From IMG/VR virus record IMGVR_UViG_3300042922_000982, positions 93,407-157,406 of that record: a stretch of 64,000 bases of DNA; one strand, given 5' to 3'. Positions 181 to 16,871 of the stretch are shown in pieces (within the stretch, counting starts at the first letter, position 1; each line of letters begins with the position of its first letter). The position numbers and the translations under genes were made by a program. The notes under the pieces are model-generated. The model was not told the origin of the DNA and made no database searches. It saw only the letters and a program-made list of their open reading frames with translations. This DNA is from a virus.

Positions 181-3100
181 CTACTCCAGATCCGGCTCGG
201 CGTGCCCGGCGGTACGGCCGGGCGCGCGATCGCTGCGTTTCTTGCCCATGAACTGGGCCTTCACGCGAGCGGGAGCCGCCTCGGCACCTTCCACCCGGCC
301 GAAGCGCGCCGCCTGGCGCACCTCGCCTGCCAGCTTCTGCTTGCGGGCAACCGCGATCCCCTTCTTCTCGTCCAGGGTCGAGACCCCGGCCGTGTGCGAG
401 CGGGTGATGACGCGGTGCACGATCGCCTTCGGCACCGAGCCGGTGAGGCGGGCGTGACGCCCGTAGAGCTGCTCCAGGTTGGCCTGGTTGTAGTCGCCGT
501 CCAGGTCGATCAGGTGCGTGCCGCGACCCAGGTTGACACCCGAGGCCGCGATGTTCGAGCTGACGACCAGGATCTTGTGCGCCTCGTTCTCGTTGAAGCT
601 CTTGACCGTATCGTTGCGCGAGGCGCTGATGCGGGTGTCGTGCTTCTCGACAGGCGACGTCTCCTCGTCCTCCGCGCCCGGCTCGGGCGTGAAGTCCTCG
701 TCGGTGCCGCCCGCCTCCTCGTGCGCCGCCTTCAGCTCGTCTTGCGACGCGCGGATGACGCCGTACTTGTAGCCCAGGCGATCGGCATCGGCGCCGCCCG
801 CCATCTTCTGCACGTCGGCATGGGCCCGCTTGAGGCGTTCGTACGTGTTGGACGTCTCGGGGAAGGTGCTGAGGCGATCGCGGGTGTCCGCGTGCGCCCG
901 CGCCACCGCCTTGAGGTTGCGGTGCTCGACCTCCTCCTCGTGCGTCAGACCGCCCGCCGCCGCCTTGGCGGACAGGTGGTTGTGGCGCTCGTAGGCGTGC
1001 TTCGTGTTGTCGTGGGTGTCTTGCAGGCTGGCCTTGAGGGCCTGGTGCTTGGTCGCCTCTTCGTGCATCTGGCGCTCGATCGGCTCCAGGCTGCTCTCGA
1101 GGTGGCGCTTGGCGTTGGCGCCCGAGTACTCGCCCATCACGCGCTTGGCCACCCCTTCGAGGTGGTTCTGGCCGTTGACGCGCTTGGAGGCGAGGATGAT
1201 CTTGGCGTGGGGGTCGTTGCGCATGATCTCGCGCACCTTGTCCTCCACGGCCTTGATCTTGTGAGCGTGAAGCTCCTCCTCCGAGTGGGCGATCGCCGCC
1301 AGGGCGCCCTTGCCGATCTTGCCGTCCTTGCCGCCGCCCTCGATCGCGCTCATGGCGCCAGAGCTGTGAAGCTCCTCGTGGTGGCGTTGGATCATGGCGT
1401 CGTGCTCGGGGCCGAGATCGACGTGCATGTCCTGCAACTGGGCCGACGGGGGACGCATCTCGGCGTCGAGGTCCTCGTTGGTGGAGGTCACCATGTAGCG
1501 GCTGAGCTTGTTACCCAGCTCGGCCTTCTTCTCCTCGTTGATGCCGATCAGGTGGCCGGTCGACTCGTCCTTGATGCCGTAGTTCTTGATGAACTGCTTC
1601 TCGGTGCCGAGATCGTGCTGGCCACGGTGCGTCATGTTGACGAGGTTGAGCTGCTCGCCCAGGTGGTTCTGGATCGGCGTGCCCGTGAGCGCCATGACGC
1701 CCTTGGCCCGGCCGTGCTGCGACGCCTTCAAGCCCGCGTCCTCGTGGTCGAGGCCGTGGATGTAGGCGTCCACCACCCGGCGCTGGCCGCCCTGCGTGCC
1801 CGCGCGGTTGAGCGTGTGCGCCTCGTCGACGATCACGCCGTCGAAGCCCTGCTCTTTCAGGTGCTGGGCGATCGGCTTGCCGCCCACCTTCTTGTTGCCG
1901 TGCACCGGGGCGCCGTCCTCGCCGAACAGCTCGTGCGCCTTGATGTTGTGCTCCGCCTCCAGGGCCGCCTGGACCTCGGGCCGGTGCAGATCATCGTGCG
2001 TGAGCCCCTTGTCGCGCATCACGTCCGCGAGCTTGACCGCCCCGATGCGGGTGGCCTTGTTCGCGAGCATGGAGCGCGTGACGACGTGGTACTTCGCGTT
2101 CGGGCTGATGTCCTTGCCGAACGAGATCTCGCCGCCCTCGTGGTGATCACCGGCGCCGGGCAGGTGCGGCTTCATGCCGAAGAAGGCCGCCGCGTCGTCT
2201 TTCCAGGCTTTCGCCTGGGTGGTGGAGGGCACCACGACCAGGTGCTTCTGCGCCGCGTCCGGGTTCTTCACCTTGGCAAGCTCGGCCGCCGCGAGCGCGG
2301 AGCTGGTCTTGCCGTTGCCGACGCCGAGCGCGCTGATGGTGCGCTGCCCGCCGTTGACGTAGTGGTGAATCATCTTCTGCTGGTGCTTGGTGAACCCGAT
2401 CTGACGGCCGTTGGTGTCGCCGTTGATGTGGCTCAACAGGCCAGGGATCGCCGTGGTCGCCTTGCCCTCGGGGCCGTAGACGTGAGAGCCCAGCTCGTCG
2501 AAGCCGTTGATCTGGTCGGCTGCGAGGGCCGCTTTTTGGCGGACCTGCTGCAAGCGCGGCAGGATGTCGCCGCGCAGCTTGACGCCGCCGAGCAGGTGCG
2601 TGATGCGGTCGACCGCCTCCATGGGCACGACCAGCCCGCGCTTGCCGCCCTTGGCGTTGGCCAGCTGGCCGTAGCCTTCCTCTTTCAGCATGCCGAGCAC
2701 CTGGGCGATCGCGTGCGCCTTGCGGATCGCCTGCGATTGCTCGGTGGTGGTGCCGAGGTTGGCGTCTTCCAGCCCGCCGAGGCCGTGCTTCTCGCCCAGC
2801 TCCTTGATGATGGCCTGCTCTTGCGCCTGGGTGGGCGTGCCCTTCCAGAACATCTTGTGCTTGACCATCGCGTTGGCCAGCTCGATCAGCTTGCCCTCGG
2901 GATCGGTGGGGTCCGACGGCAGGCTCAGAATGGCGCGCGGCTCGGGCGCGTCGATCTCGGGCAGGCCGTCCTTGACGCGCTGCTTGTTCGCCTTCAGGCG
3001 CGCCTTGCGCTCGTCGGCGGACTCGGGCTGCTCCATCTGGATGGTGGGCACGTCGGCGTGGGCCTTGCGGTCCGCGTCGGCGAGCTTGGCGTCGACGATC

Positions 3101-6100
3101 GCCTTCTCCTCGGGCGTGTGGGCCTCGAAGTAGGCGTGGGCCTTCTCGCGGCTCCAGTTGCCCAGGGCGGTCATCTTGTCCTGCTTGGCGTCGTAGCCCG
3201 CGAAGAGCTGCTTGCCGTTGTGCTCCACCGGCCCCTGGTGCTGGGCCAGGCCGCCGGTCTCGCCGATGATCTCGTGCAGGCGCTTGCCCGCCAGGTTGCC
3301 CTGGGTGATCACGGGCGACCCCTTGTGGTCGTACGTGACATGCATGAGCCAGTGGCTGTTGCCGTTGGAGAGGTGCACCACCGAGCTGGTGCCCGCCAGC
3401 GCGCGCAGCTTGCGGTTGAGGTCGTCGGCGGTGTGGATCACGGTGTCGCCGAGCAAGCCGCCCCAGTACTGATCCTTCACGCGGCCGTCGGCGCCGATGT
3501 GAATGTCGATGTCGTGGCCGTCGTGCGTGCGCGCGGTGAACGTGCGCGTGCCGTCGTCTTGCTGGGCGCCTTCCTTGAAGTCGACCGGGGCGTCCTCTGC
3601 CGCCGCCTTCGCCTTCTCGCCCTTGGTGGCCGTCTTGCGCACCTTGCCGTCGGCGACGGTGCGCTTGTGGCCCGCGATCTGCTTGGCGACGTGCTCGCTC
3701 AGGTCGTTGCCCGAGCTGTTCTGAATGGCCGCGTCGAGCTCCTTGTTGAAGTCGACCGCCAGGTTCTTGTTGTCGAGCCCCAGGTGGCGGTACAGCGCGG
3801 CGGCCGGGATGGTCCCGTCCTTCTTGCTGCCGGGCACCTGCGTCCCGTGCTCCGTCTCCGCGAACAGCTCGGTCTTGTGACCCTTCTTGCTCTTGGCGTC
3901 GTAGCTCTGGCGGACGTGAACGTGGACCGTCTTGCCCTCGTGCTGGATGGTGAACTTGTGCTCTTTCGCCGCCTTCTCGTCATCCGCGTGGCTGTGATCG
4001 CCGAAGTCGCCGCCGCCCGACAGGTGCGCGTGAAGCTCGGAGATGTGCTTGCCCACGAAGGCCGAGGGACCGGCGGCAATCTGGCCGCCCTTGGTGATGT
4101 ACACGGCGCGCCCGTGCATGGTGATCCAGCGCCCGCCGGGGTACTTCGAGAGCATCTCGGCGCCGATCCCCTTGAGGATCAGGTCGTCGAAGGGCTCGTC
4201 AACGCCCGCGACCAGCGCGTCGGCCACCCGGTAGGTCAGGCTGCCGGTGTAGCTCTTGGCGATCGCCTCGTCCACCTGGGACAGAGAACCCGGCCCGGCA
4301 AACGCCGCCATCTGGAAGATGAGGCCGTTGGCGCGGTCGACCACGGTCCAGACGCGATCGTCGCCGCCCAGGCTCTTGACCAGGCCGGTGTCGGCCAGCC
4401 ACATCTTCACCGTGCGCTGCGGCTCGGCGTCGAGGGGCCGATCCTCGAACACGAAGGCCATCAAGCGGCCCTCGGCGGTGTAGGGCATCAGCCCCTTGGT
4501 CAGCTCGGTGCCGTGGAAGTCCTGGAGGTCGCCCGCCAGCTGGAGGTGCTGCTTGGCGTTCATGAGCATCTTGCGGCCGGTGCCGGGGTGGTAGCCCAGG
4601 CGCTCGAACACGTCCGACACCGCGATCCAGCTCTTCTTGCCGCCCACCACGTCCTTGGTGGACTTGGGGGTGGTCAGCATGGCCATGTAGTCGCCCTTCC
4701 ACTTGAGGAGGTTGAGCGCCAGCTGGTACTTCTGGCCGTTCGGGTTGACCTTCGAGGGCTTGACGCCGCCGTTGACCAGCATGCGATTGACGATCATGTG
4801 ATCGTTAATGGCCACGGGCTCGCGATCGGCGGCTTGCAGGAGCGCCTTGTACTCCTTGCCCTTGCGCTGATCCTTGGGCACCTTGCGCACCGCGCTCTTG
4901 GCCGCCTGGATCTCGGCGTTCTGCGCGTTCAGGTCGTCCTTGGCGCGCTTGAGGCCCTCGGCCATGGCCGGAACGTGCTCGTGCTTGAGCATGTCCTTGA
5001 GCGCCTTGCCGCCGTCCTCGAGGCCCGCCGACACGACCACGGCGTAGCGCGCGCGGGGGTCGGGAATTTGCGCGATCGCCGCGCCCATGAGGGCCTGCAA
5101 CCGCTCCGAGTGATCGGCTTGCGCCACCTGGGCGAGCGGGTCGACGCCCTTGCCCTCGACCAGATCGCCGAGCGTGCCCGCTTGATCATCGTCGCCCGCC
5201 GGGGCGTCGAGGTGGGCGGCCACGACCTCGTGGGCCAGGCGCGACAGGCGCTTGACCTCGGCCGTTTCGACCTGCATGGCGTGAGCCAGCTCGGTGTCGG
5301 TGGCCGGGCGGCCAAGCTCCGTCTCCAGGGCGCCGCGCACGCGGCTCATCTGGGTCAGGCTGGTGTTGTCGGCCTGCGACACGCGAATGGGGCTGACGCC
5401 CATGATGTCGCGCCACTTGCGGCTCAACTCCTGATCGACGGTGCCCGCCACCTGATCGTGCAGGCTGGTGATGCGCTCGGTGGGGTCGTGGCGACCGATC
5501 ACCTGCCACGCGCTCATGCGGGCGTGCTGCGCCATGTCGGCGAAGAACGAATTGCTCGCCGGGCGGCCCTTCTCGTCGACGGAGGCCGTCATGCCGAGCT
5601 TGCGCATCCAGTTACCGGCGATCGCCACGATCTTCGGCTCCATGTTGCGCAGGGTCGCTTCTTTCACCCGGCGCTCCAGCTCCGGGGTGTAGTCCTTGTA
5701 GCCCTTGAGCTTCTCGCGGATCCGCTGCTTCGCCTCGTCGCCGTCGGCGAGGAAGAGCTGGCCTTCGAGCTTCTTCTTCTCGGCGAACTTGCCGAGGTGC
5801 TCCTCGAACACCGCCTGCTTCTGCACGCGGGCCGCCGCGCCCTCGGCGCTGTCCTTCTTGAGGCCCGGAATGTCGAACAGGGGGGCGGGCTTGCCGAGCG
5901 TCACCTTGGCCGGGGCCGCCGCCGTGTTCACCTTCGCGCGCACGTCGGGCTCGGCCCAGGCAAGCGAGCCCTGCGGGCCCACGCCGGGGAGCGTCTTGGG
6001 GGTCTTGGGCTTGGCGGCGGCCTTCGTCGCCTTCGTTTTCTTGCCGCCCGCCTCGCCGTGGGTGCCCACGGTCAGGACCGGCTGCTTGGCGTGCGCCTTG

Positions 6101-6567
6101 ACCTTGCCGCCCACATGGACGCCGGTCTTGCCCGCCTTGGCGGCAGCCTTGGTGGCCGGGGCGATCGCCGCCGCCTTCTTGGGCGATTGCGCCTTGAGGG
6201 CCGTGCTGGCCTTGCCCGTGGTGGGCTTGGTCGGCGCCTTGGCGACGGCCTTGGCCTTCACCTTGGCCTTCGGCGCGGCCACGGTGGCCGCCTTGCCCGC
6301 CTTCTTCGCGGGCTGGGCGCCCACGGGCTTGGCCTTGGGCACCGCCGCGCTGGCCTTGCCCTTGGTGCCCTTGACGGCCGCCTTGGTGGCCTTGGGGGCC
6401 GCGCCCGCTTTCGCGTCCTTCTTCTTGAGCTTCGCTTCCTCCAGAAGCTTGGCCGCGAGCGCGCTCACGACCTTTTTCTTGTTGACGTTGCGGGTGGTCT
6501 CGCGCACCTGGTAGACCGTGCCCGTTTTGGTGTGGCTCTGGTGAGCCTTCACCCTTTCGGTACTCAT
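181..6567 (-). CDS. giant polyvalent protein: N-terminal shared motif, Lys/Ala-rich region, sigma-70-like domain, linker, SNF2-type SF2 helicase
   Basis: AGGAGG 9 nt before ATG 6567; sigma-like NMEPKIVAIA, FADMAQ..RHDP, ELGRPATDTELA..HLDAPAGDDDQAGTLGDLV; helicase motifs GVGNGKT, IVDEAH, LTGTP, SGVNL, QLYGRHAR. Confidence 0.85.
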   Translation of the reverse strand: MSTERVKAHQSHTKTGTVYQVRETTRNVNKKKVVSALAAKLLEEAKLKKKDAKAGAAPKATKAAVKGTKGKASAAVPKAKPVGAQPAKKAGKAATVAAPKAKVKAKAVAKAPTKPTTGKASTALKAQSPKKAAAIAPATKAAAKAGKTGVHVGGKVKAHAKQPVLTVGTHGEAGGKKTKATKAAAKPKTPKTLPGVGPQGSLAWAEPDVRAKVNTAAAPAKVTLGKPAPLFDIPGLKKDSAEGAAARVQKQAVFEEHLGKFAEKKKLEGQLFLADGDEAKQRIREKLKGYKDYTPELERRVKEATLRNMEPKIVAIAGNWMRKLGMTASVDEKGRPASNSFFADMAQHARMSAWQVIGRHDPTERITSLHDQVAGTVDQELSRKWRDIMGVSPIRVSQADNTSLTQMSRVRGALETELGRPATDTELAHAMQVETAEVKRLSRLAHEVVAAHLDAPAGDDDQAGTLGDLVEGKGVDPLAQVAQADHSERLQALMGAAIAQIPDPRARYAVVVSAGLEDGGKALKDMLKHEHVPAMAEGLKRAKDDLNAQNAEIQAAKSAVRKVPKDQRKGKEYKALLQAADREPVAINDHMIVNRMLVNGGVKPSKVNPNGQKYQLALNLLKWKGDYMAMLTTPKSTKDVVGGKKSWIAVSDVFERLGYHPGTGRKMLMNAKQHLQLAGDLQDFHGTELTKGLMPYTAEGRLMAFVFEDRPLDAEPQRTVKMWLADTGLVKSLGGDDRVWTVVDRANGLIFQMAAFAGPGSLSQVDEAIAKSYTGSLTYRVADALVAGVDEPFDDLILKGIGAEMLSKYPGGRWITMHGRAVYITKGGQIAAGPSAFVGKHISELHAHLSGGGDFGDHSHADDEKAAKEHKFTIQHEGKTVHVHVRQSYDAKSKKGHKTELFAETEHGTQVPGSKKDGTIPAAALYRHLGLDNKNLAVDFNKELDAAIQNSSGNDLSEHVAKQIAGHKRTVADGKVRKTATKGEKAKAAAEDAPVDFKEGAQQDDGTRTFTARTHDGHDIDIHIGADGRVKDQYWGGLLGDTVIHTADDLNRKLRALAGTSSVVHLSNGNSHWLMHVTYDHKGSPVITQGNLAGKRLHEIIGETGGLAQHQGPVEHNGKQLFAGYDAKQDKMTALGNWSREKAHAYFEAHTPEEKAIVDAKLADADRKAHADVPTIQMEQPESADERKARLKANKQRVKDGLPEIDAPEPRAILSLPSDPTDPEGKLIELANAMVKHKMFWKGTPTQAQEQAIIKELGEKHGLGGLEDANLGTTTEQSQAIRKAHAIAQVLGMLKEEGYGQLANAKGGKRGLVVPMEAVDRITHLLGGVKLRGDILPRLQQVRQKAALAADQINGFDELGSHVYGPEGKATTAIPGLLSHINGDTNGRQIGFTKHQQKMIHHYVNGGQRTISALGVGNGKTSSALAAAELAKVKNPDAAQKHLVVVPSTTQAKAWKDDAAAFFGMKPHLPGAGDHHEGGEISFGKDISPNAKYHVVTRSMLANKATRIGAVKLADVMRDKGLTHDDLHRPEVQAALEAEHNIKAHELFGEDGAPVHGNKKVGGKPIAQHLKEQGFDGVIVDEAHTLNRAGTQGGQRRVVDAYIHGLDHEDAGLKASQHGRAKGVMALTGTPIQNHLGEQLNLVNMTHRGQHDLGTEKQFIKNYGIKDESTGHLIGINEEKKAELGNKLSRYMVTSTNEDLDAEMRPPSAQLQDMHVDLGPEHDAMIQRHHEELHSSGAMSAIEGGGKDGKIGKGALAAIAHSEEELHAHKIKAVEDKVREIMRNDPHAKIILASKRVNGQNHLEGVAKRVMGEYSGANAKRHLESSLEPIERQMHEEATKHQALKASLQDTHDNTKHAYERHNHLSAKAAAGGLTHEEEVEHRNLKAVARAHADTRDRLSTFPETSNTYERLKRAHADVQKMAGGADADRLGYKYGVIRASQDELKAAHEEAGGTDEDFTPEPGAEDEETSPVEKHDTRISASRNDTVKSFNENEAHKILVVSSNIAASGVNLGRGTHLIDLDGDYNQANLEQLYGRHARLTGSVPKAIVHRVITRSHTAGVSTLDEKKGIAVARKQKLAGEVRQAARFGRVEGAEAAPARVKAQFMGKKRSDRAPGRTAGHAEPDLE

Positions 6568-6658
6568 ACGCTCCATCCTCCTATTGGCATGGGATTGGCG
6601 TTCCGAGCGTAGCACGGGCAAGCAGCCGAAAAGGCACCATTTGACACCTTAGACGCAA

Positions 6659-6699
6659 TTATCCCCGAGGTGGGCCTGTTGGGCCTTCCTCGGGGATAA
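6659..6699 (-). terminator. 12-bp stem hairpin downstream of the tRNA-like RNA
   Basis: TTATCCCCGAGG ... CCTCGGGGATAA inverted repeat. Confidence 0.5.
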
Positions 6700-6722
6700 C
6701 TGCGGACTCCCGCCATGGGAGA

Positions 6723-6872
6723 TGGCGCCGTGGCAGGAATCGAACCTGCGATCTGAGGCTTCTCTGTTCCCGGCCGCCTGGGGGAGGTACTCCCGAACCG
6801 GGCGATATGGCCCCTCTCTCTACCTGGGTCGGGGTCTTGCAGGCACCCCTTCCGCCTGATGGTCATCACGGC
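6723..6872 (-). ncRNA. tRNA-like structured RNA, ~150 nt
   Basis: 5' GCCGTG pairs with 3' CACGGC followed by G-CCA; T arm GCAGG-TTCGATT-CCTGC; body too long for a standard tRNA. Confidence 0.7.
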
Positions 6873-6876
6873 GGGA

Positions 6877-6887
6877 CCAGTATACCC
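6877..6887 (-). promoter_or_regulatory. -10 box (GGGTATACTGG) for the tRNA-like RNA
   Basis: TATACT at 6884-6879, predicted 5' G lies 7 nt downstream; same 11-mer at 14313-14323. Confidence 0.6.
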
Positions 6888-7256
6888 TCATGCGTAATCG
6901 ATCGCCACCACGCGATCGCCCCAGCGGCCCACGTTGCTGTCGTCGAGGTCCTCGGTGAGCCCCGCGAACATGGCCGGGCACCATACCCATCCCTCCGGCA
7001 GCGGCTCGGCGCGGGCCATCACGTTGAGCCACCCGCCGGGGGACGCCCAGAGGGTCGGGCACAGCCGGAAGTGCCCCCGGTGCTGGGCCCACACCGACGC
7101 CTCGTTCATGTTGGACAAGAGCCCCCACAGGAACGCGTACCACCCGGCCGTCACGATGGGCACCTTCACCACCACGCCCCCGATCAAGAGGGCATGGCGG
7201 GTGGCGCCGGTGGCGATCGCCAACCGGCCGGGCAAGCGGCGCGCCAGGCCCCTCAC
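6888..7256 (-). CDS. minimal protein-kinase-like fold protein
   Basis: GTGA overlap with upstream stop; VVVKVP, NMNE, DLDDSNVG, VAIDY in kinase motif order. Confidence 0.55.
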   Translation of the reverse strand: MRGLARRLPGRLAIATGATRHALLIGGVVVKVPIVTAGWYAFLWGLLSNMNEASVWAQHRGHFRLCPTLWASPGGWLNVMARAEPLPEGWVWCPAMFAGLTEDLDDSNVGRWGDRVVAIDYA

Positions 7257-10818: not shown

Positions 10819-12663
10819 CTACTTGCCCCCCTTCGCGGCCCGGATGGCCGCCTTCAACTCGCTCCACACCCGGTCCCACTCGGGCCCCGTCACCCTGGCA
10901 TGCGCCTTGTAGGACTCCATGTAGTGCGCCAAATCGACAAGCTCGTCGCGATCGCCCGCCATGTGGATGGCCAGCTCGAATTGGCGCGGGCTCTTCAGGT
11001 GCGCCGCGCCCCCCGTGACGAACGCGGGGGCATCCCCGAGCGGATCCGGCTTGGGCGGGGTGCGCCGGGCATGCCAATCGCTCACCGCGCCGCGCAGGGC
11101 CTCGTACTGCTTATGGACGTGCGCGTGGGCCTCGGAGCCGGGCCTTAGCGTGCGCAGGTGAGTGAGCGTCTGCATGGCGGCGGCGTGCAGGTGATCGGGG
11201 TGCTTGAGCCCCACCGCCTGCGGCATGGTCATGCGCGGGGCGTGCGCGGTGCCCTCCTCGAGATCCGCCTCGGCGGGCTTGCCCTTCTTGGCCGGTTTCG
11301 GCTTGGGTTTCGGCTTGGCGATCGCCTTCTCCATGGCCCACAGGGCGCCCTTGGCGATCGCGTCCATGCTCGGCGGCGCGGGCTCGGGCGCGATGGTCGC
11401 GACCAGGGCGGTGAGCGCCCCTAGCTCGTAGGTGTAGGGATTGGCGCCCGGCACGCGGCGCGCGGCCAGGCTCTTGACGATCTTGCCCACGGGTTTGGCC
11501 CTCCAGTTGTCGGGTTCTTTGGCCGCCACCGGGCTGGTGTGCGGGTAGCAGCGGCAGCGGGGATGCAGGGGTAGCAAATTGAGGATCTGGAGCAGGGAGT
11601 ACTTGCGCCCCTCGTGCGGCGCGCAGTGCTTGCAGACCTTGTCGTCGCCCATGGTGCGCAAGTAGACGTATTTATAGCCGTGCGCGCGCAGCACGTCGGC
11701 CACGCCGTGCGCGTAGCCCGCCGCCACCATGCACTCGGCGATCAGCTTGCTGCGGTGCATGCTATAGAGCTTGGAGAGCAGCGTGTCGACGTCGGCGGCC
11801 TCCCCGCGCGCGGCGATCATGGCCAGTTGGGTCTCGGTGGTGGCGCGGATGCGCCGCACGTTGCGCCGGGCGATCGCCTCCAGGCGCTTCTTGGTGGCGC
11901 CCCTGAACCCGCGCGTGCGATCGGGCGGCAGCTTGCCCCCTTTCGCGTCGTTGAGGATGGCGCGCGCGGCCTCGGCGCGGCCGAGCTTGGCGGCGCGCTC
12001 CAGGGCGTGCATGGTGAGGTCCGCGCCCTCCGCGTCGGAGCCCTTGTAGCGCGGCCGGGCCAAGTCCGAGAGCACCGGCCGGGCCTTGGGGTGCCCCTTG
12101 GGGTAGGGGGTGCCGATGGCCTTGGACAGCGTGAGGCCCTTCTCGCTCGCGATCGCCCGGACGTGCGCTTCGAGCCACGGCGCGAAGGCGTCTGCGAGCA
12201 CCCGCTCGACGCGCAGGCGCTCGTCGGTGAGGTCCAGCTCCTGCATGAGCCCGCGCGCCTTCTGCCCGACGAGCGCGCGGATGATCTCGCGGGTGGGCGG
12301 CATCAGCTTGGCCGGTAGCTGATCGGGGTAGACCCAGCGGGCCTCGTCGCTCTCGCGCTCGGCGATGCGGAGGGCGCCCTCGGGGTGGCGCATCAGGAAC
12401 GCCTTACCCACGCCGCCGGGGAAGGTGTAGTCCTGCGAGATGCCGGTATACGTGGCCGTGAGCCCGGTTTCCTCGAGTAGCTCGCGGTGCGCGCCCGCCA
12501 AAAACGACTCGCCGGGCTCCTTGCCGCCGCCGGGCAGGTTCCAGTGATCGCCGAACAACTCCTCGGTGGCGGGGCGGTGAAGCAGCAGCACGCGGCCCTG
12601 CGGGTCGACGACAACCGCGCGGGTGCCGGGCTTGAATTTCCAGGCGTCAGAAGCTTCGGGCAT
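10819..12663 (-). CDS. Nudix hydrolase fused to MuF/SPP1 gp7-like head morphogenesis protein
   Basis: Nudix box GGGKEPGESFLAGAHRELLEETGL; MuF motif DDKVCKHC..PLHPRCRC; GAGG before ATG 12663; close to portal. Confidence 0.85.
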   Translation of the reverse strand: MPEASDAWKFKPGTRAVVVDPQGRVLLLHRPATEELFGDHWNLPGGGKEPGESFLAGAHRELLEETGLTATYTGISQDYTFPGGVGKAFLMRHPEGALRIAERESDEARWVYPDQLPAKLMPPTREIIRALVGQKARGLMQELDLTDERLRVERVLADAFAPWLEAHVRAIASEKGLTLSKAIGTPYPKGHPKARPVLSDLARPRYKGSDAEGADLTMHALERAAKLGRAEAARAILNDAKGGKLPPDRTRGFRGATKKRLEAIARRNVRRIRATTETQLAMIAARGEAADVDTLLSKLYSMHRSKLIAECMVAAGYAHGVADVLRAHGYKYVYLRTMGDDKVCKHCAPHEGRKYSLLQILNLLPLHPRCRCYPHTSPVAAKEPDNWRAKPVGKIVKSLAARRVPGANPYTYELGALTALVATIAPEPAPPSMDAIAKGALWAMEKAIAKPKPKPKPAKKGKPAEADLEEGTAHAPRMTMPQAVGLKHPDHLHAAAMQTLTHLRTLRPGSEAHAHVHKQYEALRGAVSDWHARRTPPKPDPLGDAPAFVTGGAAHLKSPRQFELAIHMAGDRDELVDLAHYMESYKAHARVTGPEWDRVWSELKAAIRAAKGGK

Positions 12664-12696
12664 GGGCATCCTCGGGGAAACGGGCGATCGGACCTC

Positions 12697-12707
12697 CATT
12701 GTAGCGG
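12697..12707 (-). promoter_or_regulatory. -10 box motif CCGCTACAATG
   Basis: TACAAT upstream of MuF gene; repeated at 19379-19389 and, as GCTACAATG, at 46274-46282. Confidence 0.55.
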
Positions 12708-12725
12708 CAGATGCGTCCGAAAGGG

Positions 12726-12764
12726 CCGAAACCGCCAGGCCGCTTGTGGGCCTGGCGGTTTCGG
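12726..12764 (-). terminator. 16-bp perfect hairpin
   Basis: CCGAAACCGCCAGGCC / GGCCTGGCGGTTTCGG just after the 12786 stop. Confidence 0.6.
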
Positions 12765-12785
12765 GATAACGGGCGATCGCCGCAC

Positions 12786-13220
12786 TTACGCCTGGGCGGG
12801 CGATTCCGGGGCGGGGTCGCCCGCGATAGCGAGCAGGAGCTTGCGGTAGCCGTCGTCCTGGGCGATCGCCAGGTTGTCGCGCTCGCCGCTGCCGGGCTGC
12901 GCCAGCACATGGGACGTGGCGATGGCGAACCCGAGCAGGACGTGCATCCGCTGGGGGAGCGTCTCCGGATTCGGCGGCATCGCGATCGCCTCGTACTCGG
13001 CGGCCAACGCGGCCAGGGCCGGTTTGTCGAGCGCGAGGGTCATCTGCAAGGGCAGGAGCGCCGCCTTGCACTCGGCGACCACCTCCGCTCGGTGCGACGC
13101 CGGGAAGCGGTCCAGGGCGGTGAATAGCGAGCGGTAGCCCGCGCGCAGAGCGTCGAGGGCCGTAGCCATGGCCGCAGCGGCGGCGATCGTGGCCGGATCG
13201 TTGGCGTCAAGCGTCTCCAT
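12786..13220 (-). CDS. hypothetical protein
   Basis: start overlaps upstream stop. Confidence 0.65.
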   Translation of the reverse strand: METLDANDPATIAAAAAMATALDALRAGYRSLFTALDRFPASHRAEVVAECKAALLPLQMTLALDKPALAALAAEYEAIAMPPNPETLPQRMHVLLGFAIATSHVLAQPGSGERDNLAIAQDDGYRKLLLAIAGDPAPESPAQA

Positions 13221-14218
13221 TACAGCTTACCCGCCTTGTCGGCCTTGGCGACCCGCTTGGCCTTGGTGCCGGGAACCCTGGAGAACAGGTCGTCGGCCAC
13301 CGAGGCTGGCAGATCGGTGCTTTTGGGAATGGGCGCCACCTTCTTCTCGGGCGCGGCGGCCTCGGCCTCGCGCAATCGGGCAATCAGGGTCGCCTTCTCG
13401 TCGGCGGTGAGGGTGTGCCCGTCGATCGTCACATCCTTGGCGCCCTCGTACAGCGCCGCCATGCCGACCAGCCCGGTCAGGTCGTAGGTGGCGGCATCGA
13501 ACGGCCCGTCGTCATCCTGCTCGTCGTCCTGCTCGGCGGCGGCGATCGCCGCGCCCAAAGGCGTCTCCGAGAAGGGCTTGGCGCCCTGGGCCTTGTCGGC
13601 TTCTTTTTGTTTGACCCAATCGGGGGCCGTGCGAATGGCCACGCGGTAGGCGTCCATGAGCTCGAATTCCTCGATCAGGTACGCGCCCTCCGCCTGTACC
13701 TGCAAGCCGCAACTCATGACGTCGCCGTGGCCGAACTCCATCTTCTCGTCGTCGTAGAGCCCGAAGCCCAAGAGGGCCACGCGATCGCCCTCCTTGCGCT
13801 GCGGGCGGCCGGTGCCGATGCTGGCCGACTCGAGGATGATGCTGACCTTCTCCTCGTCGAGGCGGATGTTGCCGGTGCGGCCGTCGGGCAAGATGGGCGC
13901 CGAGCGCAGGACCAATTCGTAGAGGCCGCGCACCTTGAACGTGCGGTCGAGGAAATCGCCGTGGGCCTTGATGCGGAACTTGAGCTTGATGCCCTCCTCG
14001 TAGCCCGCATGCTTGAACTTGGCGACCGTCACGACGCCGTCGTCGGCGTCCTCGTCCTGGCCGACGTGCACGCAGCGGACGACGCAATTGAAGCGGTTAT
14101 TGAACTTGTCGGGGTCGTAGTTGGCGCCGTCGGCGGCCAGCGAGCCGTCGGTGAGGTCGAGCCCCGGCGGCAGGCCGTCGAGGTTGGGGTCGGGCGCGGC
14201 AGATTCGATGATGGCCAT
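13220..14218 (-). CDS. hypothetical acidic protein
   Basis: ACCGAAAGGA leader; 332 aa. Confidence 0.75.
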   Translation of the reverse strand: MAIIESAAPDPNLDGLPPGLDLTDGSLAADGANYDPDKFNNRFNCVVRCVHVGQDEDADDGVVTVAKFKHAGYEEGIKLKFRIKAHGDFLDRTFKVRGLYELVLRSAPILPDGRTGNIRLDEEKVSIILESASIGTGRPQRKEGDRVALLGFGLYDDEKMEFGHGDVMSCGLQVQAEGAYLIEEFELMDAYRVAIRTAPDWVKQKEADKAQGAKPFSETPLGAAIAAAEQDDEQDDDGPFDAATYDLTGLVGMAALYEGAKDVTIDGHTLTADEKATLIARLREAEAAAPEKKVAPIPKSTDLPASVADDLFSRVPGTKAKRVAKADKAGKL

Positions 14219-15153: not shown

Positions 15154-16809
15154 TTACGCGGGCTCCTCGCTGCCGTCGGGGTTCACCTTGGGCAAGCTGG
15201 GGGGCGCTGCGCCCTGCGGGGCGCCTTGATCGCCCTGGGCGGCCTGCTGGCCACCGGGGGCGCCTTGCTGGGCATCCTGGCCGCCGTCCTGGCCGCCTTG
15301 ATCGCCATCGTCGCCGTTCATCATGCCCTGCGCTTGCAGGTCGGCCTGCTTGTACATCTGCCACGCCTGGAACAGGGTCGGATCCTTGGGGATGTCGCCC
15401 CAGAATTGCTCCTCGGGGACGGCTTTCAGGTCGAATTCGGCGCGCACCTCGTTGACGGTCTTGATGCCCGCCTGCATGAACTTGGTGGCGGTGTCGACCT
15501 TGGTGCTGACCTGATCGGGGTCGAGGCCGGTCCAGGCGAATTCCAGCTCGCCTGAAGGGTCGAGCCGCGACATGATGTCGTCGTTGATGCCCGATTGCAG
15601 GCGGTTGAGCAGGGGGATCAGGCCCTTCGATTGGCTGTGAACGAGCGTGGCCTCGTTGTTGCCCTGGTTGCCGAGCCCGCCCGGCTCGCCCGCGCCCTTG
15701 GCGCCGAAGCCGATCTCCTCGCGATCGCACTGGTAGAGCGCGCAGATGATCGTGATCAAGAAATCGAGCCACTCGTGGAACTCCATGTCCTTGTTGCTGT
15801 TCTTGATGCTCGTCCAGTTGACGCCCTTGCCCTCCTTGAAGGCCATGACCGGCACGCGGTGGCTGTTGCCGACGCCGGAGACCATGGCGTTCCAGTAGCG
15901 CGTGAAGTTCTCAAGCTGCTCGGAGGTGTACTGGCCCATCAGGCTCAAGACGCCCTCGGGGATGTTGCCGTGGGTGAAGTAACGGCTGTTGTAGGTCATG
16001 GAATTCAAGAAGCCGGTCACGGTCTCGATCATGCCCTCGACCTCGCTGAAGCCGTAGCCGTTGGCCGTCAGGTCGGTGCGCGGGTTGCGGATCCAGTAGG
16101 CCAGCTCGCGATCGGTGAAATCGGCGTAGGGCTGGCCGTTGACGATCTGCACGAAGGCGATCTCGTCGGATTCGTCGTGGGGGACGCCGCCGTACCCGGC
16201 GCCGCGCATGCCGACCACCGACGCCATGTTGGCGTTCAAGAATCCGGCGTTGGCGCGGTAGCCGGGCGCGGCGATCTCGATGGTCGCGCCGTCGACCGCG
16301 AACCAATCGAACAGGGCGCCCTTGGCATCGTCGCGAATTTCGATGGCCATGGCGTCCAGGTTGAGCGTGTCGCGGACGATCGCGCGCAGGAACGGATCCA
16401 GGCTGGGCCGCTTGCCCTTCTCGGGGGGCGCCACGCCGCACTTGAGGATGGTCTCCTCGTAGGCGCGCATCAGCTTCTTGGCCGCCGGGCCCGTGCGCTG
16501 ATCGCGGTCCTTCATGCGCACCTCGAAGCCCATGTCGCCTTCGTAGTGCGGGCGGCGGGCGAAGCGGGCCACCTGGTTCTGGCGGGTCAGGATCACCGCG
16601 CCGATCGGCTGGCAGGCGCGGGCCACCTCGCGCAGGGTGTGCAGGCTGAGGCTGTTGGCCTGGCGCGGGCGCGTGCCCATCACCTGCCACATGACGTTGG
16701 TGGGGTCGTAGAGGTGCGCGTGCAGGGGGTTGATCGCGCCCGGCTGGGCCTGCGCCTGCGTCTGCGCCGCCTTGCCGCGTGCCAGCTTGTCCTTGTGCTT
16801 CTTCGCCAT
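15154..16809 (-). CDS. portal protein (Twort/SPO1-like)
   Basis: NGYGFSEVE, YFTHGNIPEGVL, DMEFHEWLDFLITIICALY..EEIGF, SQSKGLIPLL; GGAGG RBS. Confidence 0.92.
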   Translation of the reverse strand: MAKKHKDKLARGKAAQTQAQAQPGAINPLHAHLYDPTNVMWQVMGTRPRQANSLSLHTLREVARACQPIGAVILTRQNQVARFARRPHYEGDMGFEVRMKDRDQRTGPAAKKLMRAYEETILKCGVAPPEKGKRPSLDPFLRAIVRDTLNLDAMAIEIRDDAKGALFDWFAVDGATIEIAAPGYRANAGFLNANMASVVGMRGAGYGGVPHDESDEIAFVQIVNGQPYADFTDRELAYWIRNPRTDLTANGYGFSEVEGMIETVTGFLNSMTYNSRYFTHGNIPEGVLSLMGQYTSEQLENFTRYWNAMVSGVGNSHRVPVMAFKEGKGVNWTSIKNSNKDMEFHEWLDFLITIICALYQCDREEIGFGAKGAGEPGGLGNQGNNEATLVHSQSKGLIPLLNRLQSGINDDIMSRLDPSGELEFAWTGLDPDQVSTKVDTATKFMQAGIKTVNEVRAEFDLKAVPEEQFWGDIPKDPTLFQAWQMYKQADLQAQGMMNGDDGDQGGQDGGQDAQQGAPGGQQAAQGDQGAPQGAAPPSLPKVNPDGSEEPA

Positions 16810-16831
16810 GGGGCCTCCGGTGATCAAAACG

Positions 16832-16871
16832 GCTGGGGGTGGGAATGCCAAGCAAGCACCCCACCCCCAGC
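16832..16871 (-). terminator. hairpin with T tract upstream of portal
   Basis: GCTGGGGGTGGG / CCCACCCCCAGC followed by CGTTTT. Confidence 0.5.

Follow-up and report, generated by a model that had tools for sequence, protein, structure and literature searches.

It has been known since the 1970s that some phage RNAs are shaped like tRNAs without being tRNAs, among them the species 1 and species 2 RNAs of T4, and their purpose is unexplained. The species 1 RNA is T4 rnaC, whose neighbour is rnaD, and it is not known to have an assigned function. The acceptor/T-arm half of a tRNA is read by RNase P, by the enzymes of 3'-end trimming and CCA addition, by EF-Tu-like binders and by SmpB. YrlA has its tRNA-like module inside the molecule, the Ro-binding stem being made by the two RNA ends. 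Leaderless tRNAs were reportedly described by Randau and colleagues in 2008 from Nanoarchaeum equitans; their promoter spacing is said to be fixed, with transcription starting at the mature 5' end or beside it, so that no trimming by RNase P is needed. The sequence of T4 rnaC (AF158101, 70908-71046) comprises 139 nt and shows CCGGG-UUCGAAU-CCCGG directly before its 3' strand. In mycobacteriophage DS6A an RNA is found that is little more than the tRNA-like domain of a tmRNA, and titration of SmpB was proposed for it (Hudson, Lau, Williams 2014, PMC4131195).

Here, we describe RNA C, a tRNA-like gene from a 157-kb soil phage. The virus record comprises 157,406 bp with 68.8% G+C and is rated complete by CheckV. 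The window, i.e. the whole stretch of 64,000 nucleotides that was analysed, corresponds to its bases 93407-157406. RNA C is located on the window minus strand (6873-6723, with a length of 149-152 nt) in a 320-nt gap between two co-directional minus-strand genes, and the block around it consists of head morphogenesis genes. Judged from its sequence, this RNA gene with its tRNA frame is real, and it is the longest member of a family of three paralogous tRNA-like genes (RNAs A, B and C) in this phage. It adds a variant to a known, unexplained sort of phage RNA. The features of the locus, in window coordinates, are as follows.

6888-6890, minus strand: stop codon of the upstream neighbour, a 122-aa gene (phrog_4301)
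6879-6884, minus strand: TATACT, a -10-type box inside the motif GGGTATACTGGTCCCG (6887-6872)
6867-6873, minus strand: 5' acceptor strand CGCCGUG; the predicted start G6872 is the 7th nt after the box
6850-6866, minus strand: D-region of 17 nt without a D stem, with A14 and G18G19 (numbered from C6873)
6831-6849, minus strand: hairpin of 5 bp at the anticodon position, GGGGU/ACCCC, whose loop GCCUGCAAG has 9 nt, present in the minimum free energy (MFE) and centroid folds
6750-6830, minus strand: 81-nt interior at the variable-region position, including the hairpin GGGAG-UAC-CUCCC at 6794-6782
6733-6749, minus strand: T arm GCAGG-UUCGAUU-CCUGC (stem 6749-6745/6737-6733, loop 6744-6738)
6726-6732, minus strand: 3' acceptor strand CACGGCG
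6723-6725, minus strand: CCA directly behind the 7-bp stem
6707-6721, minus strand: small hairpin CUCCC-AUGGC-GGGAG, 5 bp, 3' of RNA C
6654-6704, minus strand: strong hairpin with a 17-bp stem and inner 4 bp, no U tract (z = -6.59, 0/200 shuffles as stable)
6606-6614, minus strand: TGCTACGCT, extended -10-type box of the sigma-SNF2 gene
6567, minus strand: ATG of the downstream neighbour, the sigma-SNF2 gene (2128 aa, with Sigma70_r3 and SNF2 helicase domains)
10822-13071, minus strand: NUDIX/MuF-like head-module protein
15157-16851: portal gene

The ends of RNA C form an acceptor stem (CGCCGUG/CACGGCG) in which seven of seven pairs are Watson-Crick, as in a tRNA. Most of this had been recognised in the first-pass annotation of this DNA: GCCGTG (6872-6867) indeed starts at the 7th nt past TATACT and pairs with CACGGC-G-CCA (6732-6723), the terminal pairing being longer than claimed, namely 7 bp via C6873-G6726. 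Two readings of the 3' end follow the same letters. With 7 bp the CCA comes directly after the stem, position 73 is C and CCA would be added later; with 6 bp G6726 becomes the discriminator and the CCA is encoded. The T arm reported as canonical is so, its position being 6749-6733 on the minus strand, with a 5-bp stem, a loop of the UUCRANY type and the pair G53-C61. Between the acceptor strand and the T arm ~117 nt are found in total. In the D-region folding gives a CC/GG contact of 2 bp at most instead of a D stem of 3-4 bp, and at the anticodon position the 9-nt loop of the hairpin replaces the 7-nt loop with U33 of an anticodon arm, so that the annotation was right in seeing no clean 5-bp/7-nt arm there. 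The hairpins it proposed for the interior can form, although they are no more stable than those of shuffled sequences: the folding z is +0.85 for the 81-nt interior, which leaves the interior structure without statistical support, and -0.08 for the whole RNA C. The unconstrained MFE fold of delimited RNA C retains the acceptor and T-arm helices. If two upstream C residues are included, a competing 9-bp hairpin (CCGCC-G-UGAU/AUCA-GGCGG) replaces the acceptor stem, and with these additional 2 nt at the 5' end the acceptor-free fold is slightly more stable (-58.8 vs -56.3 kcal/mol). The position upstream of the sigma-SNF2 gene, with its ATG at 6567, was also given correctly. A hairpin does follow RNA C, yet it is larger than the 12 bp at 6659-6699 described before, with 17+4 bp at 6704-6654. 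An open reading frame across RNA C (6564-6869, minus strand, 101 aa) was considered and rejected as non-coding because of its GC3 of 0.64 as compared with a gene median of 0.91.

Perfect T arms are rare in this phage. The scan looked for five Watson-Crick base pairs around TTCRANN and for a closing 7-bp pairing 30-260 nt upstream. Exactly three perfect T arms are present on both strands of the 157-kb genome, those of RNAs A, B and C, and each of the three is closed by a 7-bp acceptor pairing 63-124 nt upstream. In the null model of 60 Markov-simulated genomes with matched dinucleotide content the mean number of T arms was 0.53; that of closed T arms was 0.07, and no genome exceeded 1. The tRNA-like frame of RNA C exceeds chance. 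Both paralogues are encoded outside the window.

Genome 92640-92553, minus strand: paralogue A, 88 nt
Genome 92836-92696, minus strand: paralogue B, 141 nt

When each of the three RNAs is cut to run from its first acceptor base up to position 73, its unconstrained MFE fold retains the acceptor helix and the T-arm helix. The three frames together have 36 base pairs (12 in each RNA), and every one of them is standard. Two-sided changes among the three are seen at acceptor pairs 1, 4 and 6 and at T-stem pair 3, the remaining stem differences are G-U, and no pair is broken. The similarity among the three interiors is not significant. Paralogue A ends with GCG-CCA-U, identical to the end of RNA C; read with a 6-bp acceptor, both would have an unusual GCCA end. 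Paralogues A and B possess Leu-like D arms (GGCGGAAU..). In A this arm is accompanied by a long variable arm and an odd anticodon loop, UGUGCGC, with G33. In B it is followed by an extended arm that has CCCAC-CUCAGAC-GUGGG at its end (anticodon CAG, U33, A37), by three small hairpins ahead of the T arm and by A73 without CCA. Neither of them was scored as tRNA by Rfam. Directly upstream of B lies an ORF-free stretch of ~420 nt (genome ~92868-93285, minus strand) with a promoter-like site, TTGCCA-N18-TAATAT, ahead of it and a 17-bp hairpin at its end; it has no Rfam match and a folding z of -1.6. The gene directly downstream of A encodes a DUF1643 protein (genome 91838-92470, minus strand, E = 1.4e-38).

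The surroundings of RNA C resemble those of a separate gene. TATACT ends 6 nt upstream of the first G of RNA C. Of its extended form TAYACTGG the genome has four copies, all of them in intergenic DNA and on the minus strand. Three of these end 5-7 nt ahead of the acceptor starts of RNAs A, B and C, so that, counted from the end of the box, the first G of each RNA is nucleotide 7 or 8. Upstream of RNA C no -35 hexamer was found; promoter function is thus suggested by a conserved and positioned motif. A 16-mer, GGGTATACTGGnCCCG, is common to the box of RNA C and the fourth TAYACTGG copy, which lies upstream of a 332-aa gene (13223-14218). Behind this second GGGTATACTGGnCCCG copy, at window 14320 on the minus strand (genome 107726), the leader of that gene contains a CCGGCGCC/GGCGCCGG hairpin, and judged by these motifs the leader probably carries the same type of promoter as found before RNA C. 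On the 3' side, the hairpin 6704-6654 is a probable terminator or 3' processing block; a consensus terminator scan reported no terminator there because a T run is missing. The sigma-SNF2 gene has, besides a ribosome-binding site of its own, the box TGCTACGCT and therefore likely a promoter of its own, apart from the gene of RNA C. The pattern TGCTAnnCT is present three times in the genome, i.e. before the sigma-SNF2 gene, paralogue A and paralogue B, with A and B carrying TGCTACACT. Among the boxes of the wider type TGnTAnnnT 19 of 34 are intergenic, although intergenic DNA accounts for ~15% of the genome.

RNA C is not a standard tRNA. ARAGORN (default threshold, introns allowed) reported no tRNA at RNA C and neither tRNA nor tmRNA anywhere in the window, and Rfam 15 gave no match at gathering score and no relevant one at E<=10 in the RNA C region. 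The suggestion of a tRNA with an unusual insertion, made in the first-pass annotation, finds no support in this; after shortening of the interior in silico only a sub-threshold 'Cys(gca)' was called by ARAGORN (90% threshold), at the price of discarding the perfect acceptor for a mismatched one. At an 80% threshold a 'tRNA-Ser(aga)' with a 120-nt intron was obtained and rejected: its 5' half lies inside the upstream gene, its acceptor has two mismatches, its D loop has no GG, the intron position is non-canonical and the model swallows the -10 box together with the perfect 5' strand. For tmRNA, ARAGORN -m on the region and the genome and Rfam at E<=10 remained without match. The AlaRS features of tmRNA, G3-U70 and A73, are missing as the annotation had remarked; RNA C has C3-G70 and a C at position 73, which becomes G if the stem is read as 6 bp. 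A tag frame was also sought, and the only one opened by GCA reads ARPRPR-stop. The idea of a Y-RNA-like scaffold found no support: Rfam shows no YrlA match, the topology is the opposite one and no Ro60/TROVE gene (PF05731) is present in the phage, with positive controls. More generally, no obvious partner gene (Ro60, CCA-adding enzyme, RtcB, RNA ligase) was found in the phage. No Rfam match was obtained for group I introns, ribozymes or recently described bacterial tRNA mimics (skipping-rope and others), and a search for antisense targets within the phage gave no complementarity better than E = 0.27. What stood of the earlier proposals was that of a tRNA mimic: frame, box and terminator-like hairpin recur in both paralogues, and RNA C has neither a D stem nor a 7-nt anticodon loop. 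A nuclease decoy or a packaged RNA, also proposed in the annotation, would be candidate roles for it. A recognisable standard tRNA was found nowhere in the phage genome. The 'tRNA-Ala(cgc)' which ARAGORN with introns calls at genome 70396-70608 (minus strand; 120-nt intron, 4-bp T stem with two G-U) is probably spurious.

Among the described systems T4 rnaC comes closest. Both RNAs are phage-encoded and of similar length (139 vs ~150 nt), both have acceptor-like paired ends with the T arm next to the 3' strand, and their interiors consist of non-tRNA hairpins. RNA C shows the paired ends, the T arm at the 3' strand, the non-tRNA interior and the size of ~120-150 nt by which "T4 rnaC-like tRNA-framed RNAs" can be described, this being a descriptive class and no curated family. 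In contrast with RNA C, T4 rnaC has two U-U mismatches in its acceptor, no encoded CCA and a position inside a tRNA gene cluster, and its fold is strongly stable (z = -4.6 vs -0.08), whereas a -10-type box of its own is a feature of RNA C only. In the alignment of both only the 11-nt T-loop motif matches (p = 0.12). On this comparison RNA C is to be regarded as analogous to T4 rnaC, without being shown to be homologous.

With class II tRNAs (Leu, Ser, Tyr, Sec) RNA C shares the order of acceptor, D region, 5-bp hairpin, variable region and T arm, but their variable region reaches ~25 nt at most and that of RNA C 81 nt, to our knowledge about three times any known one. RNA C further differs by the lack of a D stem, by the 9-nt loop, by its CCA, which in the 7-bp reading has no discriminator ahead of it, and by being negative with ARAGORN and Rfam. 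The tRNA-like domain of tmRNA and the DS6A RNA, the latter phage-borne as well, resemble it as non-decoding mimics of a tRNA end in which the T arm is present and the D region unpaired; RNA C in contrast has no G3-U70, A73, helix P2, tag frame or match to a tmRNA model. YrlA is likewise non-coding and contains a tRNA-like module without use in decoding, but only in RNA C do the RNA ends form the acceptor stem. With the leaderless tRNAs of N. equitans RNA C would share the fixed distance of the promoter element, but those are archaeal and canonical, and the spacing of RNA C is deduced from three loci only.

Searches for relatives had little success. In GenBank phages neither blastn nor tblastn detected a homologue. 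IMG/VR contains no close relative of the sigma-SNF2 protein. Only three distant relatives of this protein were found (37-45% identity), and relatives of the portal protein reach only 24-28%. In the three distant sigma-SNF2 phages the gap in the syntenic position measures 74-110 nt and a closed T arm is absent from +/-10 kb around it, and blastn of the RNA C gap against the loci of the relatives returned noise only. As no orthologue was found, conservation is measurable only across the three paralogues. For the exact T-arm/acceptor strings, 24 nt in C and 25 nt in B, there was no match in species genomes and viral contigs (for the 24-nt string of RNA C this means 185,579 species genomes and IMG/VR), and a degenerate 3' end of the A/C type gave none in viral contigs. 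In metagenomes the pattern GGTTCGANTCC-N7-GCGCCAT has >120 matches, which are due to chance, to ordinary tRNAs (Arg, Met, Leu, Ser) or to 3' tRNA fragments, and none among them resembles RNA C. A search of sequencing runs for the RNA C sequence found it in one soil metagenome DNA run, from which the virus record probably derives, and in no RNA run. One contig of the relatives encodes an 827-aa NUDIX protein (600-3083) adjoining the portal gene; in the present phage the head-module protein at 10822-13071 joins a NUDIX hydrolase domain to MuF/minor-head-like sequence.

RNA C is probably best described as a stand-alone phage gene of ~150 nt, with a tRNA frame round a non-tRNA interior, whose product would be a non-decoding mimic of the tRNA top half; we assign to this reading a probability of about 0.5. 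It is based on the fact that the acceptor/T-arm stack, the GG of the D region and the RCCA end are kept and the decoding parts are gone. Transcription would proceed from the -10-type box with G6872 as putative start, and with such a start the 5' end of the RNA would need little or no trimming by RNase P. The hairpin 6704-6654 may stop or protect the transcript, and host 3' trimming and CCA upkeep may set its ...GCCA end. The product would be a stable non-decoding mimic of acceptor and T-arm elbow, as T4 rnaC may be. It most likely would act in trans by occupying a host factor for the acceptor/T-arm half, candidate targets being an enzyme of processing, repair or defence, or else binders of the SmpB type. 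A more far-reaching version, in which A, B and C are all leaderless, RNase-P-independent top-half mimics that jam or bait a host enzyme reading the acceptor/T-arm half of tRNA and thereby represent a kind of RNA-based counter-defence not yet described, appears unlikely; its targets could be an anticodon-independent tRNA-directed defence nuclease, the machinery of CCA/3'-end repair, or SmpB.

The same anatomy can be read in other ways. A cis-acting role as "punctuation", by which RNase P and 3' tRNA nucleases would cut a read-through transcript of the head operon from the sigma-SNF2 mRNA with RNA C as by-product, would agree with the position between two co-directional genes, with the missing terminator ahead of RNA C and with the fact that only the parts of a minimal RNase P substrate (acceptor/T-arm stack and RCCA) are intact around a seemingly unconstrained interior. 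It is nevertheless improbable, since the conserved box is positioned for a start at the mature 5' end, a very strong hairpin is located 3' of RNA C, the sigma-SNF2 gene has a separate promoter-like box and the paralogues A and B share the stand-alone layout. The interior, with neither significant folding stability nor similarity among paralogues, and the lack of orthologues in related phages (the three distant sigma-SNF2 phages, +/-10 kb) could also indicate a decaying relic of a tRNA or tRNA-like gene, the interior of which drifted after loss of function. Decay is not expected to spare paired positions alone, but RNA C has retained all 12 frame pairs together with its 7-nt T loop, CCA, box and hairpin, and stem differences to the paralogues are two-sided or G-U with none breaking a pair. 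A relic is doubtful for this reason. More doubtful still is a working, chargeable tRNA of class II type with a giant variable arm and a 9-nt anticodon loop, used in unusual decoding or as a non-ribosomal donor of an amino acid. The order of elements and the 17-nt D region would fit to it, as would the tRNA-Leu-like D arms of A and B, the anticodon CAG with U33, A37 and A73 in B, the CU-GCA-AG contained in the loop of RNA C and the 'Cys(gca)' obtained at the 90% threshold after shortening. However, a D stem is absent, the loop has 9 nt, the variable region 81 nt, the end in its 7-bp reading has no normal discriminator with CCA, neither a default ARAGORN call nor an Rfam tRNA at E<=10 is found, and the sub-threshold call swaps the perfect acceptor for a mismatched one.

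Two further readings concern the acceptor/T-arm end itself. Acceptor and T arm, together with a D region that is unpaired and the lack of an anticodon arm, make up the architecture of the tRNA-like domain of tmRNA, and with DS6A (PMC4131195) there is a published phage precedent for a decoy titrating SmpB. This is very improbable for RNA C, which lacks G3-U70 and A73 and any tmRNA call by ARAGORN or Rfam; moreover a long helix linking the region after the D loop to that before the T arm is absent, and the sole GCA-opened frame (ARPRPR-stop) is unlike a degradation tag. The T arm, the 3' acceptor strand and CCA are also the usual content of tRNA-targeting att sites. That RNA C is what is left of attP or another att site, carrying a host tRNA's 3' half, or that it matches by chance, has hardly any probability: the 24-nt string has no exact copy in the species genomes or IMG/VR, tyrosine and serine recombinases (PF00589, PF00239) are absent from the phage, the 5' partner strand is complete, RNA C has an upstream box as well as two paralogues, and the 3 closed T arms observed compare with 0.07 per genome expected by chance.

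If the non-decoding reading applies, a phage without a recognisable standard tRNA has three mimics, each with a promoter-like box at its mature 5' end, and therefore is a clear example of a tRNA frame being kept while decoding is not. Should such RNAs bait or block host enzymes that handle or cleave tRNAs, they would form a new RNA class in phage counter-defence, and the old T4 puzzle would be explained. RNA C is a case from a single genome, and its value is that of a well-defined candidate rather than of a result.

The oligonucleotide composition of the genome gives a hint to the host. The most frequent 8-mer is the cyanobacterial-type palindrome HIP1 (GCGATCGC) with 191 copies vs 6.3 expected. 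Furthermore, GGCGATCGCC has 93 copies vs 0.7 expected, while GCGGCCGC has none vs 31 expected. The three distant relatives contain HIP1 at ~1 copy/kb, a richness equal to that of this phage. This abundance in the phage and its relatives suggests a high-GC cyanobacterium-like host.

Finally, a pattern scan of unrelated IMG/VR phage contigs revealed solitary tRNA-like genes that are missed by ARAGORN. They have C or U at position 1 paired with G72, and CCA follows directly after the 7-bp stem. Forms of 52-61 nt comprise a D arm or D-like hairpin and the T arm without an anticodon arm, and two of them are scored as tRNA by Rfam; forms of 95 nt and 117 nt contain foreign interiors. One element of 52 nt recurs in six contigs. 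Another gene of this kind is located at contig positions 865-925, and a further one (contig 5315-5374) has an acceptor stem identical to that of RNA C, CGCCGUG/CACGGCG.
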